Part shown: in pieces, positions 3,343 through 47,401 of the stretch | Position numbering within the stretch: position 1 is the first letter of the stretch | Layout of the letters: every line of letters begins with the position of its first letter | Source of the DNA: Dehalococcoidales bacterium | GTDB lineage: Bacteria > Chloroflexota > Dehalococcoidia > Dehalococcoidales > RBG-16-60-22 | Assembly (NCBI GenBank): GCA_034420195.1 | Contig: DAOULO010000050.1 | Coordinates: 1 to 54,652, forward strand | Length of the DNA stretch: 54,652 bases | Direction of reading: 5' to 3' | Program-made: the position numbers and the translations under genes | Notes under the pieces: model-generated | What the model was told of the DNA's origin: nothing | What the model saw: only the letters and a program-made list of their open reading frames with translations | Databases searched by the model: none

Positions 3343-4275
3343 CTATTCCCGCACCAGCATGGCTTTGGCCAGCCGGCCGTGGCCGCGGCCGGTGAGCTTG
3401 ACAAGGTGCATGGTGAGGGTCAGCAGCAGAATACCGCCGATGATGCTGAACGGCATAACCCAATCCGGCGTGTAATAATAGTAAGGGGAGACGGTGAACG
3501 CCGGCAGGCCGAGCGTTAGCTCGAAGATGGGCCGGCCGATGAGCCAGACCGATAGGGCCACTAGGCTGATGGTGACACTGAAGTAGAGGATGCCCAGCGG
3601 CAGTTGCAGTATCATGTAGATGATAGAGGTCCAGGTAAGGCGTGAGGCCAGCAGCCCCTTGATTTTCTGCCACCAGCCGATATCCCGGCGCGAGAAGAGG
3701 GGTCGGCGTGGCATCCGGATACCGAGCAGCGCCTCGACGATGCGCCCCTCCACCAGGGCAATCCCCCGGACCGAAAGCAGAAACAGTACGGCGATGGGGA
3801 TGCCGATGATAAGCACCAGCAGCCCCAGGGATAGCGATAGCCCCGTAACCGCCCAGGTATAGTAGATGATGCCGGTGCCCAGGGCGAACAACAGGTAGAG
3901 CAGCGCCCCCCAGGCCCGCGGGTCGGCGTAGACGCCGAAGAAACGCAGGTAAAGGGGGCGCGTCTCGGCCGCCGTGGCCGGTGCCGGGGCAGGCTCGGCG
4001 GGCTTTTCGGGTGGCTTGCGGGCTGGCCGGGTGAAGGCGGGGGGCGTCCGCGACTCGATTTCTTTGTAGGCGGCGGCCACCTCGGCGGGCGAGCCGTATT
4101 TCTCCACAACGGCCGCCAGGGAGTCGGCTTCGGGGACGGCGGGGTCGGCGCCGTCCAGGGCCGTCCGCAGGTATTCCTCGGCGTCGGACAGGGCGTCCTG
4201 GATAGTGGCGCGGTCGCTGCCGGAGAGTTCTTTCTTCAGCTGGGACAGGTAACGCTCAATACCGTTATTCATCAT
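3343..4275 (-). CDS. PadR-associated membrane sensor-like protein (DUF1700/HAAS-like N-terminus plus multi-TM C-terminus)
   Basis: The N-terminus IERYLSQLKKELSGSDRATIQDALSDAEEYL is typical of the helical domain encoded next to PadR genes. A Pro-rich linker and 4-5 TM helices follow. The start (ATG at 4275 or 4272) overlaps the padR stop. Confidence 0.6.
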   Translation of the reverse strand: MMNNGIERYLSQLKKELSGSDRATIQDALSDAEEYLRTALDGADPAVPEADSLAAVVEKYGSPAEVAAAYKEIESRTPPAFTRPARKPPEKPAEPAPAPATAAETRPLYLRFFGVYADPRAWGALLYLLFALGTGIIYYTWAVTGLSLSLGLLVLIIGIPIAVLFLLSVRGIALVEGRIVEALLGIRMPRRPLFSRRDIGWWQKIKGLLASRLTWTSIIYMILQLPLGILYFSVTISLVALSVWLIGRPIFELTLGLPAFTVSPYYYYTPDWVMPFSIIGGILLLTLTMHLVKLTGRGHGRLAKAMLVRE

Positions 4276-7269: not shown

Positions 7270-7374
7270 AAGAGGGGCGAAGCCCCTCTTAATTAATAAA
7301 TCCCCCTCTCCAGACAAAATGACAGTGGGTAAGCTATTACTCCAGTTTGGAGAGGGGGACACAGGGGGTGAGGT
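7270..7374 (+). repeat. Family-D double-hairpin repeat (copy 1)
   Basis: Hairpin 1 is AAGAGGGGCGAAGCCCCTCTT. Hairpin 2 is TCCCCCTCTCC..N37..GGAGAGGGGGA. The tail is CACAGGGGGTGAGGT. The same order is seen at 29914-29998, and inverted at 17494-17576. Confidence 0.8.
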
Positions 7375-8657: not shown

Positions 8658-8807
8658 TCAGGTCTTGGGTGCGGCGCTATCCTCCGCGGGGGGCTTTTTC
8701 CGCTGGACGAGGCCGGCGATGACCTTGATGATGAGCGCTACCAGCACGGCGATGACGGCCGCCACGCCGTAGGCTATCAAGGCGAATACGATGGGATGAA
8801 ACTCCAT
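8658..8807 (-). CDS. Putative small membrane subunit of the decarboxylase (OadG/MmdD-like); not in the ORF track
   Basis: My own translation gives MEFHPIVFALIAYGVAAVIAVLVALIIKVIAGLVQRKKPPAEDSAAPKT (49 aa, one TM helix). It sits tightly between the biotin-carrier gene (21-nt gap) and the beta subunit (13-nt gap), as in known oad/mmd operons. It is short and has no diagnostic motif. Confidence 0.4.
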   Translation of the reverse strand: MEFHPIVFALIAYGVAAVIAVLVALIIKVIAGLVQRKKPPAEDSAAPKT

Positions 8808-16367: not shown

Positions 16368-16447
16368 GGCTCTTACCTGCTCCGGGGTTTTTGGCCCCTT
16401 ATCAATTTACCCTATATCGGTATATTTATCCAGCTTTTTGTTAAGAA

Positions 16448-16522
16448 CCCCATCACCTCCCCCTCGGTGTTATCTATTCCCACCCGGCCGCCTTCTAGCG
16501 GCGGCGCCTTCGGGGCGGAGGG
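16448..16522 (+). repeat. Family-A REP/BIME-like unit (solo, 3' half diverged)
   Basis: CCCCATCACCTCCCCCTC..GTTATCTATTCCCACCCGGCCGCC... It contains the stop codon and the last roughly 10 codons of the 16495-17466 ORF. Confidence 0.65.
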
Positions 16523-17466
16523 GAATACCGTCTTTTTGATGGCAGCCTGCTGTCGCTGGCCCGCTTTTCGATATTGCCCATTTTCTCGTCCGTATCCTTT
16601 ATCTCTCCGGGGGCTTCTACCGCCCCGGCATCTTTCCCGATTTTCTCGATGGTCTTGATGGCTTCGGCGCCGGTCAGCCTTTTCTTTCTGGCCAGCCGCT
16701 TGGCTAGGGCGATACACTGCTGGCGGGTTGCTCCTTGGCGGAAAAGCCGGTCGCTCAAGCCATCCCGCTTCCCGTACAGCCAGGCGGCCACGGTTCTGGG
16801 CTCCAAACTCCGGGACGACAGGAGGTATCCGTCCCAGCCGGTCTGGCGGATAAACCGGTCTCGGAGTTCCGTGATGAACCCGGCGGTAAGCTGTTTCTCC
16901 TTAAATTGTTTTCGGCTCTCGCCGGCGAGATAGGATTGGAGCGGCTCCGGGTACTGGCTCACCGGGTCGGTCGGTTGCGGTATCAGTACGTCGATAAGGC
17001 AGGCCATTACCCCCTGGGTGTTTTTGCCAGATAACCCTATTATTTTGCAGATATCCCCTACGTCTTCACTCGCCCTGGCCACAAATGCCCCCAGGCCGGC
17101 GCGCCTCTCGTACTTTTCGGTCTTCAGGTATGGGGCCAGGGTTTCTTCGGCAACCCATCCGGCCAGTAAGACATCGGCAATCTTGCCGATTTCGATGGCG
17201 AGGTTCCGGGTCGCTTCGTCGGCGGAGTCCTTTATTTTCTCATCGAGGCTGAGGTCGGGGAAGGCCCGGTTGTTAATCAGGTCCAGATTGATGATGTCTG
17301 CCCTCGATTCCCGCAGGATGGCCCTGGCTCCGGCCGACAATTCCGGGAGGGCAATCTCGGTGCTGCCTTTTTCTTTCTCGATGTAGACCTCTTTGATTTC
17401 AAAGCCATGAGCCGCGGCCATGACGGCGTGACCGGCTTCGTGAACGGCGATGGTGTCCAGTTTCAT
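16495..17466 (-). CDS. Stand-alone FtsH/M41-like zinc metallopeptidase-domain protein with an uncharacterised C-terminal half
   Basis: 323 aa. The N-terminus MKLDTIAVHEAGHAVMAAAHG carries the HEAGH zinc site in the FtsH-type context. LLAGWVAEETL downstream resembles the FtsH LLGGRAAEE helix. There is no AAA module and no TM helix. The ATG follows GAGGAGAAAGGGAA. By eye, GC is lower than in the flanking genes. The C-terminal tail runs into a repeat unit. Confidence 0.55.
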   Translation of the reverse strand: MKLDTIAVHEAGHAVMAAAHGFEIKEVYIEKEKGSTEIALPELSAGARAILRESRADIINLDLINNRAFPDLSLDEKIKDSADEATRNLAIEIGKIADVLLAGWVAEETLAPYLKTEKYERRAGLGAFVARASEDVGDICKIIGLSGKNTQGVMACLIDVLIPQPTDPVSQYPEPLQSYLAGESRKQFKEKQLTAGFITELRDRFIRQTGWDGYLLSSRSLEPRTVAAWLYGKRDGLSDRLFRQGATRQQCIALAKRLARKKRLTGAEAIKTIEKIGKDAGAVEAPGEIKDTDEKMGNIEKRASDSRLPSKRRYSPPPRRRRR

Positions 17467-17493
17467 TTCCCTTTCTCCTCAGCCTCCTTTTTT

Positions 17494-17576
17494 ACCTCAC
17501 CCCCTGTGTCCCCCTCTCCTGGCGAGGCGTGCCGCAGGAGAGGGGGAGGTTTAGGGAGAGGGGCTGCGCCCCTCTT
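17494..17576 (-). repeat. Family-D double-hairpin repeat (copy 3, inverted)
   Basis: ACCTCACCCCCTGTG-TCCCCCTCTCC..GGAGAGGGGGA..GAGAGGGGCTGCGCCCCTCTT is the reverse complement of the arrangement at 7270-7374. It lies between the HEPN-like gene stop and the peptidase gene RBS. Confidence 0.8.
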
Positions 17577-17588
17577 AGATGTCCTGCT

Positions 17589-18353
17589 TTATTGAACCAC
17601 AAAGCTTCCAATATCTGACCAATATCCAGGAGCGATTGGCATTATAGGCCTTACTCGCCAAAAATAGGTCATGTTTTCACCAGTAGTTGCCTCGTATTTA
17701 AATGTTGTATTTCTAATACTGTTACTACCTGTTGCATTAACGACTGGAATTGGAAAGTCAGGACTCGTAGCAATTAGTAATTCATACGCTACAGCGTTAG
17801 GGACTTCTTGCCAAACTAATTCTATTTTCCCATCCGAAATTACTGCTCCATTAGGAGGAGATATTAGTACTGTTTGACGAATGTGCAGAGAAAACTTATA
17901 TACTAAATAAACGACTGATTCAATGTAATTGGCTACATCCTCAATTTTTGGTATGTCGATTTGTTCGTTATCAATTTTGAGTCCCTTTCTATCTATTTGC
18001 CTTTTAATTCTTTCAAGAGAATCTTGTGTTTTACCTTTATGCCAATAAGAATGTACGAATTGATTCCTCTTTTCGTTTACGTTTGTAACCTGCGAGAACA
18101 TTTCCTTAGCGTAATTTGGTAAGTCGTCATCTCGCCCGATGTTATATTTTTGCATATATAATGCTTTTAACATAGCTAATAAACGTGAAAATGCTAATCC
18201 TGCTGTAACAACGCTCGCGCCTTCTATTCCCATTAAAATATTGATGCAATCTATTATTAGTTCTTCAATCAATCCAAACTTAACAGTAATCTTGCCCATT
18301 GCCTTGATAAAGGCTTCATTATAAATTATCTTCTCTTGATACGGTTTCTTCAT
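17589..18353 (-). CDS. AT-rich foreign gene: HEPN-like N-terminal domain (RNQFVH) fused to an S-layer-stalk-type beta-sandwich domain
   Basis: 254 aa with no signal peptide or TM helix. The helical N-terminal half contains NEKRNQFVHSYW, which fits the HEPN Rx4H motif with Asn after Arg. About 90 C-terminal aa (ISPPNGAV...VWQEVPNAVAYELLIATSPDF...TYFWRVRP...YWSDIGSFVV) align with the stalk domains of both large surface proteins. Sampled 60-nt lines are 28-32% GC, against 68% just outside. Confidence 0.6.
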   Translation of the reverse strand: MKKPYQEKIIYNEAFIKAMGKITVKFGLIEELIIDCINILMGIEGASVVTAGLAFSRLLAMLKALYMQKYNIGRDDDLPNYAKEMFSQVTNVNEKRNQFVHSYWHKGKTQDSLERIKRQIDRKGLKIDNEQIDIPKIEDVANYIESVVYLVYKFSLHIRQTVLISPPNGAVISDGKIELVWQEVPNAVAYELLIATSPDFPIPVVNATGSNSIRNTTFKYEATTGENMTYFWRVRPIMPIAPGYWSDIGSFVVQ

Positions 18354-18377
18354 TAACTAAATTTTCTCTCCTCCCCC

Positions 18378-19691
18378 TCACTTATACCTCTTAACTTCAA
18401 ATCTATAAAGCTCCACCGGCTCGTCCGGGCCGATGCCGCCCTTCTGGCGGCAAATCTCAATCTGCTGCGCGGCGGTGTCCACGCCCTCCAGGTCGGGCAG
18501 GAGCAGGCCGCGCTGCCAGCCGGCGGCGACGATGACGCCGTACTTGCTGGGGTCGAGTGAGCTTTCGTCTTTTATCTTTTCGGGCGGGGTGAGCACGTCC
18601 ACGCTGTAGTCCAAATCGGCCAGCTCGTCGGGGGTGATAGCGTTGAAGCGGGGGTCGCGAGTGGCCGAGCTGACGGCGTTGGTGATAATTTCCTCGGCCA
18701 CGTTGGGCTGCTGCGGCTCGAAGGTGCCGATGCAGCCGCGCAGCGCCCCGCGCTTGTGGATGGAGACAAAGACCCCGGCCTGCGCCCGCATCTCTGGGGT
18801 GAGGGTCTGGGGGGGTGGGGGCGTACGACCCTCCCGGACGTAGCTTTCCACGGTCGCTTTAGCCAGCTCCACCAGGGGATGGCGCGCCGCCTTGAAGATG
18901 ACCCCGGCGTAGCCGACGACGGCGTCGTAGTCGCCGGTGGTGTCGCCGCTGGTCTGGTACTTCACCAGCTCGGCGCCGCTGGCCCCCAGCTCTCTGGCGG
19001 CGGTTATCAGCGCGACCACCGGCCCGTGGGCGCACATGGAGATGTTCAGTGCCTCGTAGCGGCGGGTAAGCTCGTCGGCGTCGAGGGCGAGCATGGCCTC
19101 AATGGCGGCCCGGTCCTTCTTCTCGGCGACGGCCTGCGGCTCGTAGTGGGTCATGTCGCCGCTGGCGATGATTACCGCCTCGCGTTTTAATTTCTGCATG
19201 GCCTTGGCGATGCCCTGGCCGACCTCCTGGTAGGCCTGAGCGGGGGCGTGGGCCAGGATGATGGGGACGATTCGGATATCCGGCTGGAAATACTGCAGGA
19301 AGGGCAGCTGCACCTCCACGGCGTGCTCCTGGCGATGGGCGGCCTCGTCGGCCTCGGCGTACTTGGAGGCGGCGATAATCCCCTGCGCCAGCTCGGTATC
19401 GGTCTTGACGTCGCCCAGGGGCGTGCGCCACGTTCCCTCGGCCATGACGCTGAAGGGCTTGCCCAGGCCACTGTGGCTGGGCCCCATGATGACGAAGGTC
19501 TCCTTGAACTTGAGGCGGGAGACGACCGCCCCGGCCACCGCCCCGGAATAGGGGTAGCCGGCGTGGGGCAGCAGCGCGCCGACGGCGTCCTCTTTAGGCG
19601 CCTGCTTATCAATAAACACCTCCAACATTTCGCGGATTTCGGTCGCCGAGCCGGGGTAGTACCGCCCGGCGGCGTAAGGATTTCTTATCAT
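18378..19691 (-). CDS. AmmeMemoRadiSam system protein B (Memo-like) fused to protein A (AMMECR1 domain)
   Basis: I trimmed the ORF to the ATG at 19691 ([14 protein letters not shown]...). The Memo block is [11 protein letters not shown]. The C-terminal AMMECR1 block is [21 protein letters not shown]. The start abuts the stop of the radical SAM gene. Confidence 0.88.
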
Positions 19692-29913: not shown

Positions 29914-29998
29914 AAGAGGGGTGAAGCCCCTCTTTTTTATAAATTCCCCCTCTCCTGCGGGACGCCTTGTCAGGAGAGGGGGATACAGGGGGTGAGGT
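29914..29998 (+). repeat. Family-D double-hairpin repeat (copy 2)
   Basis: AAGAGGGGTGAAGCCCCTCTT, then TCCCCCTCTCC..N17..GGAGAGGGGGA, then TACAGGGGGTGAGGT. Confidence 0.8.
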
Positions 29999-39591: not shown

Positions 39592-42500
39592 CTAGATGCG
39601 CCGTATCTTGAGGGCCATGGCCAGGATGACGAGCAGCGCCAAGGTGATGATGAAGAGCAGCCCACCGACGAGGTAGATGGCCCAGCCGGAAATGATAAAG
39701 GAGTTGCCGGGGTCGGGCAAGGAGGTGTCGTCCTGGGCGGGCGGCGGCAGGGCCGACGGCGCTGGCGTTGACGCTGACGACGGCGTGGCGGTGAGGATAA
39801 GGCCGTCCACGGCGGGCGACCTCAGGCTCAGGGCATCGGCGGTTGGCGGAAACTCGGGCGCCGGCGTTTCCTCTGGGGGCGCGGTCGTTTCCGGCGGCGG
39901 TGCCGTGGTGAAGGCGCCCACGGCGCTCCAGATACTCAGCGAGTTATTATTGATGGCCCTGACCTTCCAGTAGTAGGTGGTGGCGTATTCCAGGCCGACG
40001 TCGCACTGCCAGGCATTGCTGGGGAGGGCGTATTCACCCGTCTTGACGATGGCCGGGTGGAGAAAGTCCATGGCCGCGGCCACCAGCAGCTCGTAGGCGG
40101 TGGCCCCGGCGATGGCCGTCCACTGAAAGACCGGTTTCACCGCCACCCCGCTGGCCCCGGCGGGCGGGCTTTCCGGCCGGAGGGCGATGGGCTCGGTATC
40201 CAGGGTGGTGATAAAGGTCTGCGTGGCCGACCAGGGGCTCAGCACCGGGCTGCTGGCTCGCACCCGCCAGCGGTAGGTGGTGTCCGGTTCCAGGGCCGGC
40301 AGGCGGGCGGAGCTGGCGGCGGTGGTCTCCTGAAGCCCGTCGGGGATAGAGGCGAAGCTGGTCCCGGCGGTGCACTGCCACTGGTAGGCGGTGGCCCCCG
40401 GCAGGGTCTCCCAGTCGAGGACGACGTTGCGGATAGTGTGGTCGGTCAGGGTGCCGCCGCCGGTGGTGCCGTCGCCGGGGGAAACGGCCACGACCGGGTC
40501 GGTCAGGGTATCGTTAAAGGTCATCAGCCTGAGGTTGGTAGTATCCACCGACCAGAGGCGGCGGCCCGCCTGCCACAGCCCGGTGAGGGTGGCGTTATCG
40601 GCCAGGCCGCGGGTCACCGTTTCGAAGGTCGGGCCGAGGGGGAAGCTCGGGTTGAGGCAGCGCTCCAGGCCCCCACCGCTGTCGCTGTTGGCGGCGTAGA
40701 GCGTGCCCGTCGGGGATACCTGCAGCCGGTTGAGTTCGGCCCCGGCGGGCAAAGTGCCGTCGATGGCCACCCAGTCGGTGCTGGCGCCGATGACGAAGCG
40801 GGCCACGCCCCCGTCGGCGCTGTCGCTGGCGGCGTAGACGGTGGCGTTTGCGGCGAAGCCGGTATCGAAAGCGACGCTGATGTGGTCGGTAAGCGGCGCG
40901 GCGGCGGCATCTCCCGGCAGGCATTGGAAGGACTCGCCGTTATCGGTAGAATAATAGACCCAGCCGTCGCTGTTGCCGGTAAGGATGGTGCCGTCCTGCG
41001 GGTAGCCGGGGGAGAGGGCGAGGGAGTTGAGGGGCTGGCCGCCGGCCTCGGTCGCGGTGTCGTAGAAGAAGCCGCCATTGTCCGTGCGGTAGACGGTCTG
41101 GTGGCTGGCGACGAAGAGGACGCTGTCGCTGGCGATGGCCCAGGTATCGATGCTGAAGGCGGTGCCGCTAACGGGGTCGTGGGTCAGGCGGCGGCGGAAG
41201 CACTGGCCATCATCCTCGGACTGCCAGAGGGTGGGGCTGCCGTCGCTTTCCCCCGCCGCGAAGACGGTGGCGACACCCGCGCCGTACTGCGGCGGCAGGC
41301 CGACCAAAGTCAGGGTGTCCACCTCACTGAGGTGGCTGGACAGGATGCGCTCCCAGGTGCTGCCGCCGTCCCGGCTGCGCCAGAGGCTGCTATTGCCCCC
41401 GCCGAAGGTAACCATGAAGAGGGTGGTGTCCTGTTCGTAAGCGGGCGAGGGCGCCAGGTCGACGATGGTGCTGATGGCGCCGTCAATCAGCCCCAGCTGG
41501 TTCCAGGTGCCGCCGCCGTCTCGGCTCACCGAAAGGGCGCTGCCGTCGCCGCTGGTGGCGGCGTATATCCGTCCGCTGACGGCGAAATCCGGCGGCATAA
41601 GTGCCACCGTGGCCGACCCGCCGGTCGGCTCTCTCTGGCTCATCGTCCAGGAGGTGCCGCCGTCGCTGCTGAGATAGACCTGGGCGCTCCCGGACGCCCC
41701 GGCCAGAACGGTAGCCGGGTTGCCCCCGCCGGCGGCCAGCCCCCGGATGTCCACATTGGCCTGACCGTAGAGCTGACCGATGTTGAGGTCGATGGCCAGC
41801 GAGGCGGCCGGGGCGTTATTGACGTAGATTTTATACACGTCGCCGGTGCCGGTGCCGGTAGTAATGCCCACGAAGAAATGCCGGATGCCGCCGGGGGTGA
41901 CGGGGTCGTAGCCGCCGGGGAAGGCGACCGCCGCCGGTGAGTCAGCCGCAACGGGAGTGGGCATCCCGGAGTTGTCCCGGTCCAGCCGGGCCGGGCCGAT
42001 GTGGTCGCCCCAGCCGGCATTACCGACTTTACTGGCGACGAAGGTATCGGTCTCGTCGGTGAGGACGGCGGTAAGCTGGCGGTCGTAGTTGTAGCCGGGC
42101 GAGAAGGCCACGGCGCCGACGTCATAATCCCCCACGCCGGTATCCGTCCAGAGCGAGTAGGCATTGGCGGCCTCCAGCGTGTAGACGCCGCCGTACTGGC
42201 CGGCGTCACCGTCGCGGGTGCCGACGGCGATGACATCGCTGCCACCCCAGGCCACCGCCAGCGAGGTGATGACAATATTGCCGCTGCCGGCCCCACCGGG
42301 ATTGGGCGGCAGCCAGGCGAAGGTCTTGCCGCCGTCGCTGGAGCGGTAAACGTCTGAGGCCGTGGCGTAATAGATATTACCGTTATCGCCGGGCGAGACG
42401 GCGATACCGGCGATGTCGTCCTGCACGCCCCCGATGTGCTGCCAGCTGGAGCCGTTATCCACGGAGCGGTAGAGGGTGTAGGTCAGCCCGGCGCAAGCGG

Positions 42501-42771
42501 CGTAAAGGGTGCCGTCGGGGGCGGTCGTCAGGTGGCGGATATCGGAGCCGTCGGCCAGGCCCCAGCCCCCGGCCTCGCCCTGGGTGGGAATGGCGACCCT
42601 TGTCCAGGTAACCGCGTCATCAGCGGCGGCGGGCAGGGCGGGGATAATGGCCCCGAGGCCAAGCAAAGTGATAATCCCGAAGCAAAGGACGTGCCGTCCC
42701 AGGGTGGCTTGGCGGGGGGGCCTGTTCTTTGACACATGGCGAATTCTACTGCTAAATGGTAGGGAAGTCAA
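39592..42771 (-). CDS. Large surface (S-layer-like) protein 1: signal peptide, BNR/Asp-box beta-propeller repeats, two stalk beta-sandwich domains, PT-rich linker, C-terminal TM anchor
   Basis: 1059 aa. The start is uncertain: TTG at 42771 or GTG at 42735, neither with a clear SD. The signal-like segment is LCFGIITLLGLGAIIPALPAAADD. Asp-box motifs are SVDNGSSW, SSDGGKTF, SSDGGTSW, SRDGGGTW, SRDGGSTW and STDNGESF. Two ...AYxW/AYELL...TYRWRVRA/TYYWKVRA...WS..F.T domains follow. The C-terminus is PT-rich, then FIISGWAIYLVGGLLFIITLALLVILAMALKIRRI. Confidence 0.75.
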   Translation of the reverse strand: MTSLPFSSRIRHVSKNRPPRQATLGRHVLCFGIITLLGLGAIIPALPAAADDAVTWTRVAIPTQGEAGGWGLADGSDIRHLTTAPDGTLYAACAGLTYTLYRSVDNGSSWQHIGGVQDDIAGIAVSPGDNGNIYYATASDVYRSSDGGKTFAWLPPNPGGAGSGNIVITSLAVAWGGSDVIAVGTRDGDAGQYGGVYTLEAANAYSLWTDTGVGDYDVGAVAFSPGYNYDRQLTAVLTDETDTFVASKVGNAGWGDHIGPARLDRDNSGMPTPVAADSPAAVAFPGGYDPVTPGGIRHFFVGITTGTGTGDVYKIYVNNAPAASLAIDLNIGQLYGQANVDIRGLAAGGGNPATVLAGASGSAQVYLSSDGGTSWTMSQREPTGGSATVALMPPDFAVSGRIYAATSGDGSALSVSRDGGGTWNQLGLIDGAISTIVDLAPSPAYEQDTTLFMVTFGGGNSSLWRSRDGGSTWERILSSHLSEVDTLTLVGLPPQYGAGVATVFAAGESDGSPTLWQSEDDGQCFRRRLTHDPVSGTAFSIDTWAIASDSVLFVASHQTVYRTDNGGFFYDTATEAGGQPLNSLALSPGYPQDGTILTGNSDGWVYYSTDNGESFQCLPGDAAAAPLTDHISVAFDTGFAANATVYAASDSADGGVARFVIGASTDWVAIDGTLPAGAELNRLQVSPTGTLYAANSDSGGGLERCLNPSFPLGPTFETVTRGLADNATLTGLWQAGRRLWSVDTTNLRLMTFNDTLTDPVVAVSPGDGTTGGGTLTDHTIRNVVLDWETLPGATAYQWQCTAGTSFASIPDGLQETTAASSARLPALEPDTTYRWRVRASSPVLSPWSATQTFITTLDTEPIALRPESPPAGASGVAVKPVFQWTAIAGATAYELLVAAAMDFLHPAIVKTGEYALPSNAWQCDVGLEYATTYYWKVRAINNNSLSIWSAVGAFTTAPPPETTAPPEETPAPEFPPTADALSLRSPAVDGLILTATPSSASTPAPSALPPPAQDDTSLPDPGNSFIISGWAIYLVGGLLFIITLALLVILAMALKIRRI

Positions 42772-44242: not shown

Positions 44243-47200
44243 CTAGACAGAGCGCCTAGTGCGGACAATCAGGATAATGACCGCAATCACCAGTACGGCA
44301 CCGATGACGATTATCACCCAGATGTAGGCCGGGGAAATCTCCTCGGTTGCAGGCGGCTGGAAGGTTACCTGGGTTGCCTGCGGTGCGGGCGGGATGGTAA
44401 TCGTGGGTGCGGGTACCTGCGTGATTACTACCGGAGGTGCAGCGGTCGGAGGTGTTGCCGCGCCAGAACCCGCGACACCAACCGTGGTGAAGGCTACGGT
44501 GGGCGCCCAGGTGTTGTTGGTGCCAGCACCGATGGCCCTTACCGTCCAGTAGTAGGTGGTGTTGTAGTCCAGGGTGTAGACGGCTGCCGTCAGCTTGTAG
44601 GCGTTGACAACACCCAGGGCGTTGGCGCCGGTGAGGTCAACCAGCAGGTTGGTCAACGCGGCGTCGGTGCCCAGCTTGAACTCGTAGCCGGTGGCGCCAG
44701 CGATGCTACCCCACTGGAAGGCGGGGTTGACATCGGCGTCCCAGCCGCCGTAGTTCGTGCCGCCCTCGAACGGGCCGAGGATGACCGGCGAGTTGACAAC
44801 CGCCGCTACCAGCTCGGTGTTGAAGGTGTAGGTCGAGGACCACGGGCCGAACACTGGCCACCGTACTCGTACCTGCCAGTAGACGGTCTGACCGTTGACG
44901 GGCAAGCGGGGGACTGCCAGTGGAGGTAGAGGAGCGGCAGCGATCACGACGACGGTGGGATCGAAGAGGATCGCCGAGTTAACGGGAACAGCCGAGAGGA
45001 AGTCGGCGCGGGTGTCGTAGCGCATCGTGTAGTTCCAGGCACCGGGGACAGCACTGAAGGTGAAGGTGACGGAGGCCTGGGTGTTGTCCACCACGCTGCC
45101 GACCGCCGGGGTGATGCCCGTCGGGGTGGCGGTGCACAGGGTGTCGGTGAAGGTGCGCACCAGGGAAACGTTGCGGGCAACGGCCCAGATGACGTCGCCG
45201 CCCTTGGTCATGACGGTCAGGGTATCACCGACAACGAGCAGGTCACCCCCGGTAACGAGCTCGACCAAGGCCGGGACCGGGACCAGCGGGTCAAGGATGC
45301 GGAGCATACCGCCAGCTATGGGAGTCGAGGCCGTGATGTCGGTGGCGTAGAGTGCGCCGCACGGGTCGGAAAAGATGTCCTGCGGCAACAGGTTGATGCC
45401 ACCGTCAATGGCGAAAACACCCCAGTTGGTGCTGATGCCTATCGTGGCGCGCCAGACGCCGGCCGCACCGTTATCCGCGGCGTAGATGGTGCTGTTGGTG
45501 GCGTAGTTGGTATCGAATTCAACGATACCTGCACCAACGTTACCGCCGGCACCGATGGCCAAACCACCAGCGACCGGGACGTAGCTGATGTTGCCGTTGG
45601 TGGAGAGGTAGACAACGTTGGCGGCCGAGGCGACCAGCAGGTGGCCGGTAGCCGTGTCAACCTTGATTTGGTTGACGGCACCACCAGCCACGATGGGCGT
45701 GGCGGCTACCTGCCAGGTCCAGCCGCCGGTGGTGGTGGACTGAACGTTGGTTGCCGCTGCGCCGCCGACGTAGATGGTGTACTGGTCTCTAACGGCGACA
45801 TCTCCGGGGCCTATCGGGCAGGAGCGTCCGGCCCAGGTGGCGCCGCCGTCGACGGAGATTTGGATGTTACCGGCGACCACTGCGGCGTTGATGTCGGCCA
45901 GGTAGACGGTCATATCCGTCGCGTAGTTGGGGGAGGGTCGGACGATACCGGTATTGCCGGCGAGAACAGCCGAGTATACGCGGTACCAGACAGCGCCGCC
46001 GTCGGTGCTCTTCCAGAGGCTATCCGCGCCACCAGCGCCGTCGTTGGTCAGCATGAAGATTTCGGTGGCGCTGACGGCCTGGATGTCGTTGATGCCGGCG
46101 GGGGCAACGATGAAGGTATCAATGAGGCCGGACTGGTAGAAGTTGGCGCCATTGTTATCGGAGATGGAAACGCCGCTGTTGAGGCCGGTCGTGCCGGCGT
46201 AGATGCGGCTGCTGGTAGCGTAGTCGTTGGCCGGGTAGACGTAGGTGCACTCACCGCCGACAGTAGCGCCGGTGGGCGGAGCCCAGGCGGCCGTGAAGGC
46301 AATGAAGACCGACGCAGGATTGGTCGAAACGTAGACCTGGGTGTTCGCGGCCGCGCCGGCAATCAGGCTGCCGGTGGCGCCCATGCCGACGAAGGCCAGG
46401 CTGGAGAACGTAGCATCGGCCACCAGGGTGGAGGGCTGAATCAGGGTGGGGCCGACCGCCGAGCCGACGGCCAGGCGGTAAAGCCTGTCATCGGGCTGGC
46501 CACTGCGCGCGGCCACGTAGACGGTGCGCGCCAGCGGCTGGCTGCCGTTGAAGTCGGACGGGATGGCCAGCTCAGCAGTGACGATGCCGGTACCAACCCC
46601 GCCAACATCAAGGATGGCGCCGGTCGGCGTGGCAATGGCCACGGCCGCGCCGATGGTGGCATCCCAGGCGGCGCCGGTGACCAGGGTGTGCACCGCGGTG
46701 CGCGCCGCCGTGGAGGCGACGCAGATGAGGGTGGCGTCAATGGGGAAGTTGGGCGAGTACATCACATCGGTGACATCCTCAGTACCGGCGAAGACAGCAT
46801 CGTAGCTTGCCCAGTTCTGCACGCCGCCGCGGCCCCAGATGAGGACATCGGGAAGAGCCGCGACACCGGCGAGCGGGTCGGCCAGGCCAAGGGCTATCTC
46901 GCCGACGCCGGCGTTATAGTTGGGAGAAACGGCCACCGAGGTGGCCAAGAGGCCAGCACCCCCGGTCCCGCCGAGGACGGCGAAAGTCGCACCCCAGTTG
47001 GTGGAGATGTAGACCTGAGCTAAGGGGGCGACGGTATTGCCCGCCACGATAACGGTGCCGTCAGTCGCGTAGCTGGGCGAAATCTCCAGGTCCACGATGT
47101 TGGCGGGAATCGCCACCGAGGGTATCCAGGTGACACCGCCGTCAATCGAGCGGTAGACGACGTCGGCCGCGGCCGGGTTGGTGTCGACGGCTAAGATATC

Positions 47201-47401
47201 GCCGTTGGGCGCTACCTTCACGAATGAGGCGTCAACACCAAGTGTTGCTGCTGTGAAGATCTGGAAGGTCAGAGGACTGGGGATTGCCTGAGTCGACCAG
47301 GCCAGCGTGGCGGCCGAGGCCGGTAAGGCTATGACGAGAAGACTGGCCAGCAGTATCAGCGCCAGACCAACGCCACAAAGTTTAACTAGTCTTTTTTTCA
47401 T
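44243..47401 (-). CDS. Large surface (S-layer-like) protein 2, paralogous in architecture to 39592-42771
   Basis: 1052 aa. The ATG follows AGGAGGAAAT. The signal peptide is MKKRLVKLCGVGLALILLASLLVIALPASAA. Asp-box motifs are SIDGGVTW, STNWGATF, SDNNGANF, STDGGAVW and SVDGGATW. Two stalk domains follow (...GQTVYWQVRV..GPWS..YTF.T; ...FQWGSIAGATGYEFKL...TTYYWTVRA...W...VAFTT). Then come a PT-rich linker, a TM helix (AYIWVIIVIGAVLVIAVIILIV) and RTRRSV. Confidence 0.8.
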   Translation of the reverse strand: MKKRLVKLCGVGLALILLASLLVIALPASAATLAWSTQAIPSPLTFQIFTAATLGVDASFVKVAPNGDILAVDTNPAAADVVYRSIDGGVTWIPSVAIPANIVDLEISPSYATDGTVIVAGNTVAPLAQVYISTNWGATFAVLGGTGGAGLLATSVAVSPNYNAGVGEIALGLADPLAGVAALPDVLIWGRGGVQNWASYDAVFAGTEDVTDVMYSPNFPIDATLICVASTAARTAVHTLVTGAAWDATIGAAVAIATPTGAILDVGGVGTGIVTAELAIPSDFNGSQPLARTVYVAARSGQPDDRLYRLAVGSAVGPTLIQPSTLVADATFSSLAFVGMGATGSLIAGAAANTQVYVSTNPASVFIAFTAAWAPPTGATVGGECTYVYPANDYATSSRIYAGTTGLNSGVSISDNNGANFYQSGLIDTFIVAPAGINDIQAVSATEIFMLTNDGAGGADSLWKSTDGGAVWYRVYSAVLAGNTGIVRPSPNYATDMTVYLADINAAVVAGNIQISVDGGATWAGRSCPIGPGDVAVRDQYTIYVGGAAATNVQSTTTGGWTWQVAATPIVAGGAVNQIKVDTATGHLLVASAANVVYLSTNGNISYVPVAGGLAIGAGGNVGAGIVEFDTNYATNSTIYAADNGAAGVWRATIGISTNWGVFAIDGGINLLPQDIFSDPCGALYATDITASTPIAGGMLRILDPLVPVPALVELVTGGDLLVVGDTLTVMTKGGDVIWAVARNVSLVRTFTDTLCTATPTGITPAVGSVVDNTQASVTFTFSAVPGAWNYTMRYDTRADFLSAVPVNSAILFDPTVVVIAAAPLPPLAVPRLPVNGQTVYWQVRVRWPVFGPWSSTYTFNTELVAAVVNSPVILGPFEGGTNYGGWDADVNPAFQWGSIAGATGYEFKLGTDAALTNLLVDLTGANALGVVNAYKLTAAVYTLDYNTTYYWTVRAIGAGTNNTWAPTVAFTTVGVAGSGAATPPTAAPPVVITQVPAPTITIPPAPQATQVTFQPPATEEISPAYIWVIIVIGAVLVIAVIILIVRTRRSV

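Follow-up and report, generated by a model that had tools for sequence, protein, structure and literature searches.

A 54,652-nt stretch of DNA from a Dehalococcoidales bacterium (contig DAOULO010000050.1, hereafter the window) was analyzed, and an AT-rich gene on its minus strand was found to encode a helical domain with an invariant RNxxxH motif, fused to a fibronectin type III (FN3)-like β-sandwich. The fusion is conserved in a clade of homologues, and the gene recurs at one junction, between AMMECR1 and rarA, whose content varies among related genomes. We consider it rather probable, from sequence and modeled structure, that the product combines a HEPN-type RNase domain with an FN3 module and that the gene is accessory cargo of an insertion hotspot. 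The most likely role of such a protein, judged by analogy with known HEPN proteins, would be that of a solo toxin or an abortive-infection-type defense RNase; a role in defense specifically is a more tentative proposal.

Domains of the fused protein

The N-terminal domain belongs to a family that is visible only by exhaustive HMMER search. Such a search with residues 1–165 gave 378 cluster representatives at E ≤ 1e-3, most of which are stand-alone proteins of 150–190 aa. A word-indexed protein search with the single protein returned just its public gene call, P0001, and one FN3 protein, and with the family profile it returned almost nothing. The target protein contains the sequence EKRNQFVHSYW, which carries R96, N97, and H101. 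In an alignment of 143 family members, R96 and H101 are invariant (143/143 each), and N97 is present in 140/143, with D in the remaining 3. Other conserved positions are E30 (137 of the 143), W104 (135), S102 (134), K117 (132), and R115 (130).

The AlphaFold2 (AF2) model of the whole protein, made with this alignment, has a predicted local distance difference test score (pLDDT) of 90 and a predicted TM-score (pTM) of 0.73, compared with a pLDDT of only 43 for a single-sequence model. Helices are predicted at residues 13–41, 43–50, 55–69, 80–100, and 134–159, and strands at 103–106, 112–121, and 124–133 form a three-strand β insert (103–133) right after the motif. A low-confidence linker at about residues 160–169 is followed by a β-sandwich at 170–252. 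In HEPN domains, the Rx4–6H motif lies at the end of helix 3 or the start of the loop to helix 4, and the residue after the R is usually N, D, or H (PMC3710099). The N-terminal family has such a motif with a polar residue after the R, and in the AF2 model RNxxxH is placed where the third core helix (80–100) ends and the connection to the final helix begins. The order of the helices resembles that of the four-helix HEPN bundle at pLDDT > 90, as a likeness in secondary-structure order only and not a three-dimensional superposition. A β-hairpin directly behind the HEPN motif is also a feature of the Csx1 family (PMC3710099). A preliminary description of this DNA, made from the letters alone, had read EKRNQFVHSYW as an Rx4H motif with Asn after the Arg in a helical N-terminal half, and both the alignment, in which the R/H pair is invariant among homologues, and the AF2 model agree with that reading.

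Recurrent weak matches to HEPN models were obtained when the 143 members were scanned singly. In Pfam, HEPN_Cthe2314 (PF18730) was the commonest family, matched by 14/143 members at E < 0.1 (best E 1.7e-4). All 14 matches lie below the gathering threshold of 27.1 bits, which is reached by neither the target nor the family consensus. These matches are co-linear, with member residues of about 57–180, including the motif, aligned to profile positions 58–169 of 174; concatenated members served solely to locate the matching regions. Among the PADLOC models, Csx1 was the commonest (7 members), together with CARF_HEPN models (5, 4, 2, and 2 members) and Csm6, and Csm6 was the sole recurrent family in NCBIfam (5 members), all of them again sub-threshold. 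The family consensus gave a weak match to Csx1 over the motif region, with E 0.0066. Other recurrent Pfam matches were to ALIX_LYPXL_bnd (8 members) and PLU-1 (3 members), both unrelated helical families from eukaryotes that point to no other function. On the basis of the invariant RNxxxH, the HEPN-like helix order, and the recurrent weak matches to HEPN models, we predict that the N-terminal domain is a divergent member of the HEPN superfamily, closest to the Cthe_2314-like family.

Several results weigh against this assignment. The target itself matches no HEPN model of Pfam, NCBIfam, or PADLOC even at E ≤ 1, and at the same limit it matches 0 families among the PADLOC-DB v2 defense models. 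The family consensus does not match PF18730. Searches of PDB sequences with phmmer and with the family profile retrieved no HEPN structure, just designed coiled coils. The Foldseek matches of the full-length model in the PDB and BFVD are to FN3 domains nearly throughout, and the N-terminal fold was not superposed on a solved HEPN domain. Furthermore, an upstream acidic residue, in an Ex3[KR] pattern in helix 2, is found in "many" HEPN families, not all (PMC3710099), and E30 of the target family lies in the first helix with no K or R at +4. Of the HEPN reading in the preliminary description, the motif stands, the predicted helix order fits, and relatives give recurrent weak matches, whereas no curated threshold is passed by the target.

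The C-terminal domain is a seven-strand sandwich that matches solved FN3 domains. The top Foldseek match in the PDB is 3mpc_A, an FN3-like protein of C. thermocellus, with E 1.1e-4, TM-score (TMt) 0.68, and a root-mean-square deviation of 2.8 Å over 89 columns, and FN3 domains of titin, LAR, and PTP-delta are also among the matches. Relatives of the domain match Ig_Rha78A_N, Pur_ac_phosph_N, and fn3, and the core residues W181, Y190, Y230, W232, G243, and W245 are kept in homologues. The FN3-like module also occurs in tandem in the secreted proteins P0002 and P0156. Within the window, two paralogous modules are part of a surface protein that consists, in order, of a signal/transmembrane segment, Sortilin-Vps10/BNR propeller repeats, the two FN3-like modules, a Pro/Thr-rich linker, and a C-terminal membrane anchor (Table 1). 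Sequence similarity suggests that the FN3 module of the target was derived from such stalk modules of Dehalococcoidia surface proteins. The preliminary description had set off about 90 C-terminal residues as a separate β-sandwich domain and called it a surface-protein stalk domain; the Foldseek result confirms the former, and the 33% identity to the membrane-proximal modules of this protein the latter. A second ORF of > 1000 aa, at 44243–47401 on the minus strand, has no Pfam match and contains a module resembling the target FN3 at 44531–44713.

Among the BFVD models, the one clear match to the N-terminal domain alone is an unnamed 159-aa viral protein, A0A4Y5TZQ9, with TMt 0.67. The top two viral matches, A0A6J7X8X0 (262 aa) and A0A8S5QS20 (271 aa), extend over about 276 aligned columns, the entire query length, and could represent phage proteins that likewise combine a helical part with FN3, as far as the models go.

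The public gene call P0001 has 236 aa and starts at M19. We prefer the 254-aa reading, because residues 1–18 can be aligned in most full-length fused homologues and because GGAGG is present upstream of the first ATG. The whole-ORF GC of 0.352 compares with a mean of 0.631 (SD 0.038, minimum 0.49) over the other 765-nt windows of the contig, giving z = −7.3. In 200-nt sliding windows, GC is 0.33–0.39 within the ORF and 0.60–0.70 in the flanks, and the shift is complete within about 50 nt of either border. The GC at third codon positions (GC3) is 0.286, compared with 0.85–0.90 in rarA, Memo-AMMECR1, and the radical SAM gene, and the target is the sole AT-rich island of its kind across the window. 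Thus, the sharp drop in G+C at the ORF borders that was noted initially is confirmed. Equally, the protein has no signal peptide or transmembrane segment, as had been stated: the highest 19-residue Kyte–Doolittle mean is 1.68, at residues 32–50, inside the first two predicted helices.

The fused clade and the AMMECR1–rarA junction

About ten fused homologues were found (P0003–P0008, P0153, P0154, P0155, and the gene of locus L098), with 31–56% identity to the target, and the residues of the putative catalytic motif and of the FN3 core are both retained, down to about 30% identity. When a neighbor-joining tree was built from just the N-terminal domain, its seven fused sequences fell into one exclusive clade, which argues for a single fusion event and long retention. 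A unique orphan fusion was rejected, since seven fused proteins cluster in the tree and other searches gave further members; the architecture is that of a conserved clade. The stand-alone relatives of the N-terminal domain are solo, monocistronic genes without a partner.

The genes neighboring the target are all on the minus strand and co-directional with it. The radical SAM gene comes first, then a Memo-AMMECR1 fusion; the target begins after a gap of 24 nt, and past it lie a double-hairpin repeat, the gene p323, and rarA/MgsA. The flanking genes have up to 89–90% identity to those of Dehalococcoidia (Chloroflexota) metagenome-assembled genomes. No promoter-like site was found in the spacer on the strand of the target, and no tRNA genes were found in the window. 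Three other lineages have homologues with 48–56% identity at this junction or next to it, and in the two for which DNA was available the homologue has a GC of about 35%. In L081, the order is radical SAM, Memo-AMMECR1, a 79-aa antitoxin and ParE, the fused gene (P0153), and rarA, and on an ENA contig the fused gene (P0154) is directly behind AMMECR1. In L098, 12 nt separate a copy of the AMMECR1 3′ end from the fused gene; downstream come the hairpin repeat, a gene for a DUF5677 protein, a pair of antitoxin and ParE genes, and finally rarA. An assembly chimera was rejected, as the junction architecture recurs in independent assemblies.

The content of this junction is variable. Both the target gene and p323 are absent from 80/80 related Dehalococcoidia Memo-AMMECR1 loci, within the flanks taken, and these loci have other cargo or, in some cases, nothing at the junction. 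In the 49 loci with rarA downstream on the same strand, the gap from Memo-AMMECR1 to rarA is 14–5533 bp, and the GC of the gap is lower than that of the flanks in 42/44 measurable loci. Nitroreductases are found in 9 gaps, ParE in 7, glyoxalases in 5, DUF2779 in 4, and tubulin/CetZ in 3; further cargo includes the EcoO109I restriction enzyme and methylase, Schlafen/AlbA_2, a YaaC-like protein, and PD-(D/E)XK proteins. The variable content, deviant composition, and patchy distribution of hotspot cargo are all seen for the target, which occurs in 4 lineages and is missing from the site in 80 genomes.

Is the gene then a recent import or an old resident? The preliminary description had proposed recent horizontal acquisition into a housekeeping gene string and had pointed out that the same low-GC gene at the same locus in distant relatives would indicate an ancient resident. 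The foreign composition stands. However, the gene occupies the same junction, with low GC, in the other lineages at 48–56% identity, which goes part of the way toward an old resident; yet it is absent from the 80 related genomes, where the site between rarA and AMMECR1 is variable. In three hosts the fused gene has GC 0.35–0.37 and GC3 0.24–0.33, and the GC3 of the flanks spans 0.55 to 0.90. Given the recurrence at the junction, the low GC that is kept, and the absence in 80 genomes, the gene is neither a one-off recent import nor an ancient resident, and a better description is that of a long-lived, horizontally circulating accessory gene that has repeatedly occupied one hotspot. The little amelioration suggests a relatively recent arrival in this 63%-GC genome. 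The contig of the closest available relative, L078 (DAOUEH010000177.1), whose radical SAM and Memo-AMMECR1 proteins are 89–90% identical, ends inside Memo-AMMECR1.

The point of insertion can be placed from loci without the target gene. In L004, L066, L034, L049, and L007, the same double-hairpin repeat lies about 10–100 nt past the AMMECR1 stop. Since the repeat follows the AMMECR1 stop in these loci, the target sits precisely between the two. Copies of the repeat, which is about 85 nt long, occur in the window at 17494–17576 (minus), 29916–29995 (plus), and 7272–7310 (plus), with the layout AGAGGGGCGNAGCCCCTCT, then CCCCCTCTCC-loop-GGAGAGGGGGA, then ACAGGGGGTGAGG. An Rfam scan of the locus gave no match for it, and a terminator scan found hairpins without a U-tail. 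It looks like an element of the REP (repetitive extragenic palindromic) or MITE (miniature inverted-repeat transposable element) type of Dehalococcoidia.

A second copy of the final 24 nt of AMMECR1, TTYGARGTNAAGAGGTAYAARTRR, lies 80–530 nt past the true gene end in L002, L004, L006, L037, L043, and L045; in L004, for example, the 24-mer is at 3535–3558 and 3654–3677. In L004, L037, and L045 a copy lies just upstream of a cargo gene, and in L098 a copy, itself preceded by another intergenic repeat, is directly before the fused gene. This duplication suggests an att-like or target-duplication mechanism at the junction. The pair of a 79-aa antitoxin and an 88–89-aa ParE recurs in the AMMECR1–rarA gap of L098, L040, L044, L079, L081, L033, and L048. 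In L098, the DUF5677/ParDE stretch is at 1135–1959 and 2093–2585, with DUF5677 between the fused gene and ParDE.

At its N-terminus, the product of p323 has the sequence HEAGHAV, a motif like that of metallopeptidases, whereas its C-terminus is rich in Pro and Arg and highly basic; it gives weak Peptidase_M50 matches only. The GC3 of p323 is 0.72, below that of its neighbors. It is absent from all 84 related loci, and its candidacy as a conserved partner was rejected because it is missing from every other locus.

A divergent part of the fused clade (P0008/P0155, loci L178–L180) has a gene GC of 0.48, and neither AMMECR1 nor rarA was found near it within the 160–700 nt of flank on these short contigs. 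In L178 (540–1760) and L179, copies of a repeated motif, AACAATYTGACGNNTTGT, bracket the fused gene at a distance of about 160 nt on its upstream side and about 190 nt on its downstream side, and in L180 only a downstream AACAATYTGACGNNTTGT variant was noted. These repeats could be a cassette boundary.

Table 1. Coordinates of the target gene, its domains, and related features of the window.
Feature	Position	Strand	Remarks
Complete ORF, HEPN-like + FN3-like fusion	17589–18353	minus	254 aa + stop, ATG to TAA; GC 0.352, GC3 0.286
N-terminal helical domain, residues 1–162	17868–18353	minus	AF2 model and family alignment
Rx4H motif codons, R96-N97-Q-F-V-H101	18051–18068	minus	R and H 143/143, N 140/143
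C-terminal FN3-like β-sandwich, residues 163–254	17592–17867	minus	Foldseek, conserved core residues
Spacer, Memo-AMMECR1 stop to target start	18354–18377	minus	24 nt; holds GGGGGAGGAG (Shine–Dalgarno-like)
Conserved AMMECR1 3′ end, TTTGAAGTTAAGAGGTATAAGTGA	18378–18401	minus	Left junction of insertion site; 24-mer duplicated downstream in 6 related loci
Whole variable region, Memo-AMMECR1 to rarA	16368–18377	minus	Hotspot as occupied here
Double-hairpin REP-like dispersed repeat	17494–17576	minus	Directly past the target ORF stop; no Rfam match
p323, 323-aa orphan, second cargo gene	16495–17466	minus	HEAGHA metallopeptidase-like motif
1059-aa anchored surface protein	39592–42771	minus	Domain order in the text
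Two FN3-like modules, paralogous to target C-terminus	39913–40428	minus	33% identity, E 9e-11; within the 39592–42771 protein

Proposed function and competing explanations

HEPN RNases are the effectors of many defense and toxin systems, including Cas13, Csm6, Abi proteins, and HEPN-MNT, and in Csm6, Cas13, and HEPN-MNT the RNase site is completed by dimerization of HEPN domains. To our knowledge, the silencing and triggering of solo HEPN proteins are largely unexplained. We suggest that the target is a cytoplasmic two-domain protein, with a HEPN-type domain connected by a flexible linker to the FN3 module. The HEPN active site, of R and H, is that of a metal-independent endoribonuclease, and the combination of a sensor with a HEPN domain is an established theme (PMC3710099). 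By extension, R96, N97, and H101 may constitute a metal-independent endoribonuclease site, probably completed by homodimerization, and the FN3 module may be a ligand-binding or regulatory part that gates the RNase on a protein partner or an infection cue. The gene would be accessory cargo that entered behind the AMMECR1 stop codon and ahead of the native hairpin repeat, and with its 24-nt spacing and no promoter-like site of its own it is probably co-transcribed with the AmmeMemoRadiSam operon.

Some observations speak against a toxin or defense RNase. Much of the hotspot cargo is metabolic (nitroreductases, glyoxalases), so a defense role is not implied by location alone. No immunity or antitoxin partner was found at the fused or stand-alone loci examined. 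A tblastn search of phage and plasmid records with the N-terminal domain gave no match, and a scan of viral contigs gave no fused relative; neither result supports an origin in a mobile element. Furthermore, the L081 homologue (8700–8777) has an in-frame TAA in the FN3 domain, in place of the R of YYW[R]VRP (TAT TAC TGG TAA GTA AGA CCA), and the frame remains open for 21 further codons before a second stop. The identical 236-aa L081 product is recorded on 7 contigs, and the 4 that are shown come from 4 different samples. The TAA could be a recent nonsense mutation or could be read through; an in-frame stop at this position suggests that the gene is dispensable.

Among the alternatives, we regard it as unlikely that the protein is the toxin of a toxin–antitoxin (TA) or addiction module, with an antidote that has gone unrecognized (a small RNA, an antisense transcript, or p323) and with a role in maintenance of a selfish cassette and not in phage defense. 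HEPN toxins are common in TA systems (PMC3710099), ParDE pairs recur in the hotspot and stand beside the fused gene in L081 and L098, and the target is AT-rich and mobile. Nevertheless, the fused gene has no conserved neighbor, since the genes next to it differ among L081, L098, and the ENA contig and p323 is missing elsewhere; no MNT-type nucleotidyltransferase is nearby; and the stand-alone relatives are solo and monocistronic.

The N-terminal domain could also be a non-catalytic helical adaptor or regulator, in which R, N, and H bind a ligand and the HEPN matches are convergent or compositional. The failure of the target to pass any curated HEPN threshold and of its sequence profile to retrieve a solved HEPN structure would fit this explanation, as would the tendency of helical proteins to draw spurious weak matches, such as those to ALIX and PLU-1. 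Against these stand an R and an H that never vary in the family, with N following the R, in the canonical structural position, and the agreement of three independent libraries on HEPN families, with matched regions that include the motif. We therefore judge a non-catalytic bundle improbable.

Even less probable is that this genome carries the gene without a function, as a hitch-hiker or as what is left of a decaying mobile element. The premature TAA of the L081 homologue and the patchy distribution of the gene would allow this explanation, but it is at odds with an intact ORF in the window that has all the invariant catalytic-motif and FN3 core residues, with an architecture kept to about 30% identity in an exclusive clade, and with a confident structure prediction. 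Least probable of all is an accessory factor of AmmeMemoRadiSam, an RNA-processing or substrate-recognition partner placed by function and not by a hotspot: the fused gene does follow AMMECR1 (in the window and on the ENA contig) or AMMECR1 3′-end sequence (in L098) at a spacing of 12–24 nt where the DNA was read, and without its own promoter, but 80 Dehalococcoidia genomes retain radical SAM, Memo, and AMMECR1 without having it at the junction, ParDE intervenes in L081, L178–L180 lack AMMECR1 and rarA in their short flanks, the composition is foreign to the operon, and many unrelated genes occupy the same slot.

For the reading that we prefer, a HEPN-type RNase domain with an FN3 module encoded by an accessory hotspot gene, a more specific mechanism can be imagined, in which we place little confidence. 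The FN3 module might be an intracellular decoy of a host surface stalk; phage receptor-binding or other structural proteins that recognize this module at the cell surface would, after their synthesis in the cytoplasm, bind the decoy and so dimerize and activate the HEPN RNase, and the gene would travel among Dehalococcoidia in an AT-rich cassette with the AMMECR1 3′ end as its target. If this were true, the protein would be a one-protein abortive-infection system based on receptor mimicry.

Comparison with known systems

The preliminary description had recognized no described architecture in this fusion, and we have found none either: the 2013 HEPN census records neither a fusion of Cthe_2314 nor, for any of the HEPN families, an FN3 partner (PMC3710099), and a full-text literature search on HEPN, fibronectin type III, and defense gave a single paper, in which HEPN and FN3 are each named just once. 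The fused clade is conserved, and its architecture suggests protein-ligand sensing. The N-terminal family, with at least 378 cluster representatives and a marginal link to HEPN_Cthe2314, offers R96, N97, and H101 as candidate catalytic residues, along with W104, R115, and K117. In addition, the AMMECR1 stop codon, the REP-like hairpin, and rarA document a precise insertion hotspot in uncultivated Dehalococcoidia, where the biology of mobile elements is poorly known.

The Cthe_2314-like HEPN family (PF18730), which is experimentally uncharacterized, is all-helical over about 160–175 residues with a conserved RNxxxH, as is the N-terminal domain of the target (PMC3710099). Like the target family, it consists mostly of solo genes, with operon partner "None detected" (PMC3710099). 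It differs in that no FN3 fusion has been described for PF18730. The CARF-HEPN proteins Csx1 and Csm6 resemble the target in having Rx4–6H followed by a β-hairpin insert and in joining a sensor domain to a HEPN effector. However, the target has no CARF/Rossmann sensor, and its HEPN-like domain is at the N-terminus, joined to an FN3-like domain. There are no cas genes among the ORFs flanking the target. AbiD/AbiF, AbiJ, and AbiU2 are, like the target, solo HEPN proteins, often fused to a variable, presumed phage-sensing domain and found in variable or defense-rich regions. The sensor-like domain of the target is a C-terminal FN3 and not of the AbiJ-NTD type, and no Abi model in PADLOC or Pfam matches the target. 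HEPN-MNT differs in its partner, as the neighbors of the target are Memo-AMMECR1 and p323, and neither this locus nor those of the homologues has a nucleotidyltransferase.

Bacterial surface FN3/Ig-like stalks (fn3, Ig_Rha78A_N, Pur_ac_phosph_N, 3mpc) share with the C-terminal domain both the fold and the motif pattern ISPxxGA...W...GAxxYE...YYWRVR...WS...F. In contrast to these, the FN3 of the target is present as a single copy, has no signal peptide or anchor, and is joined to a predicted nuclease. Sensor-plus-HEPN fusions and hotspots flanked by core genes are familiar themes; the pairing of a HEPN-like domain with FN3 is previously undescribed.

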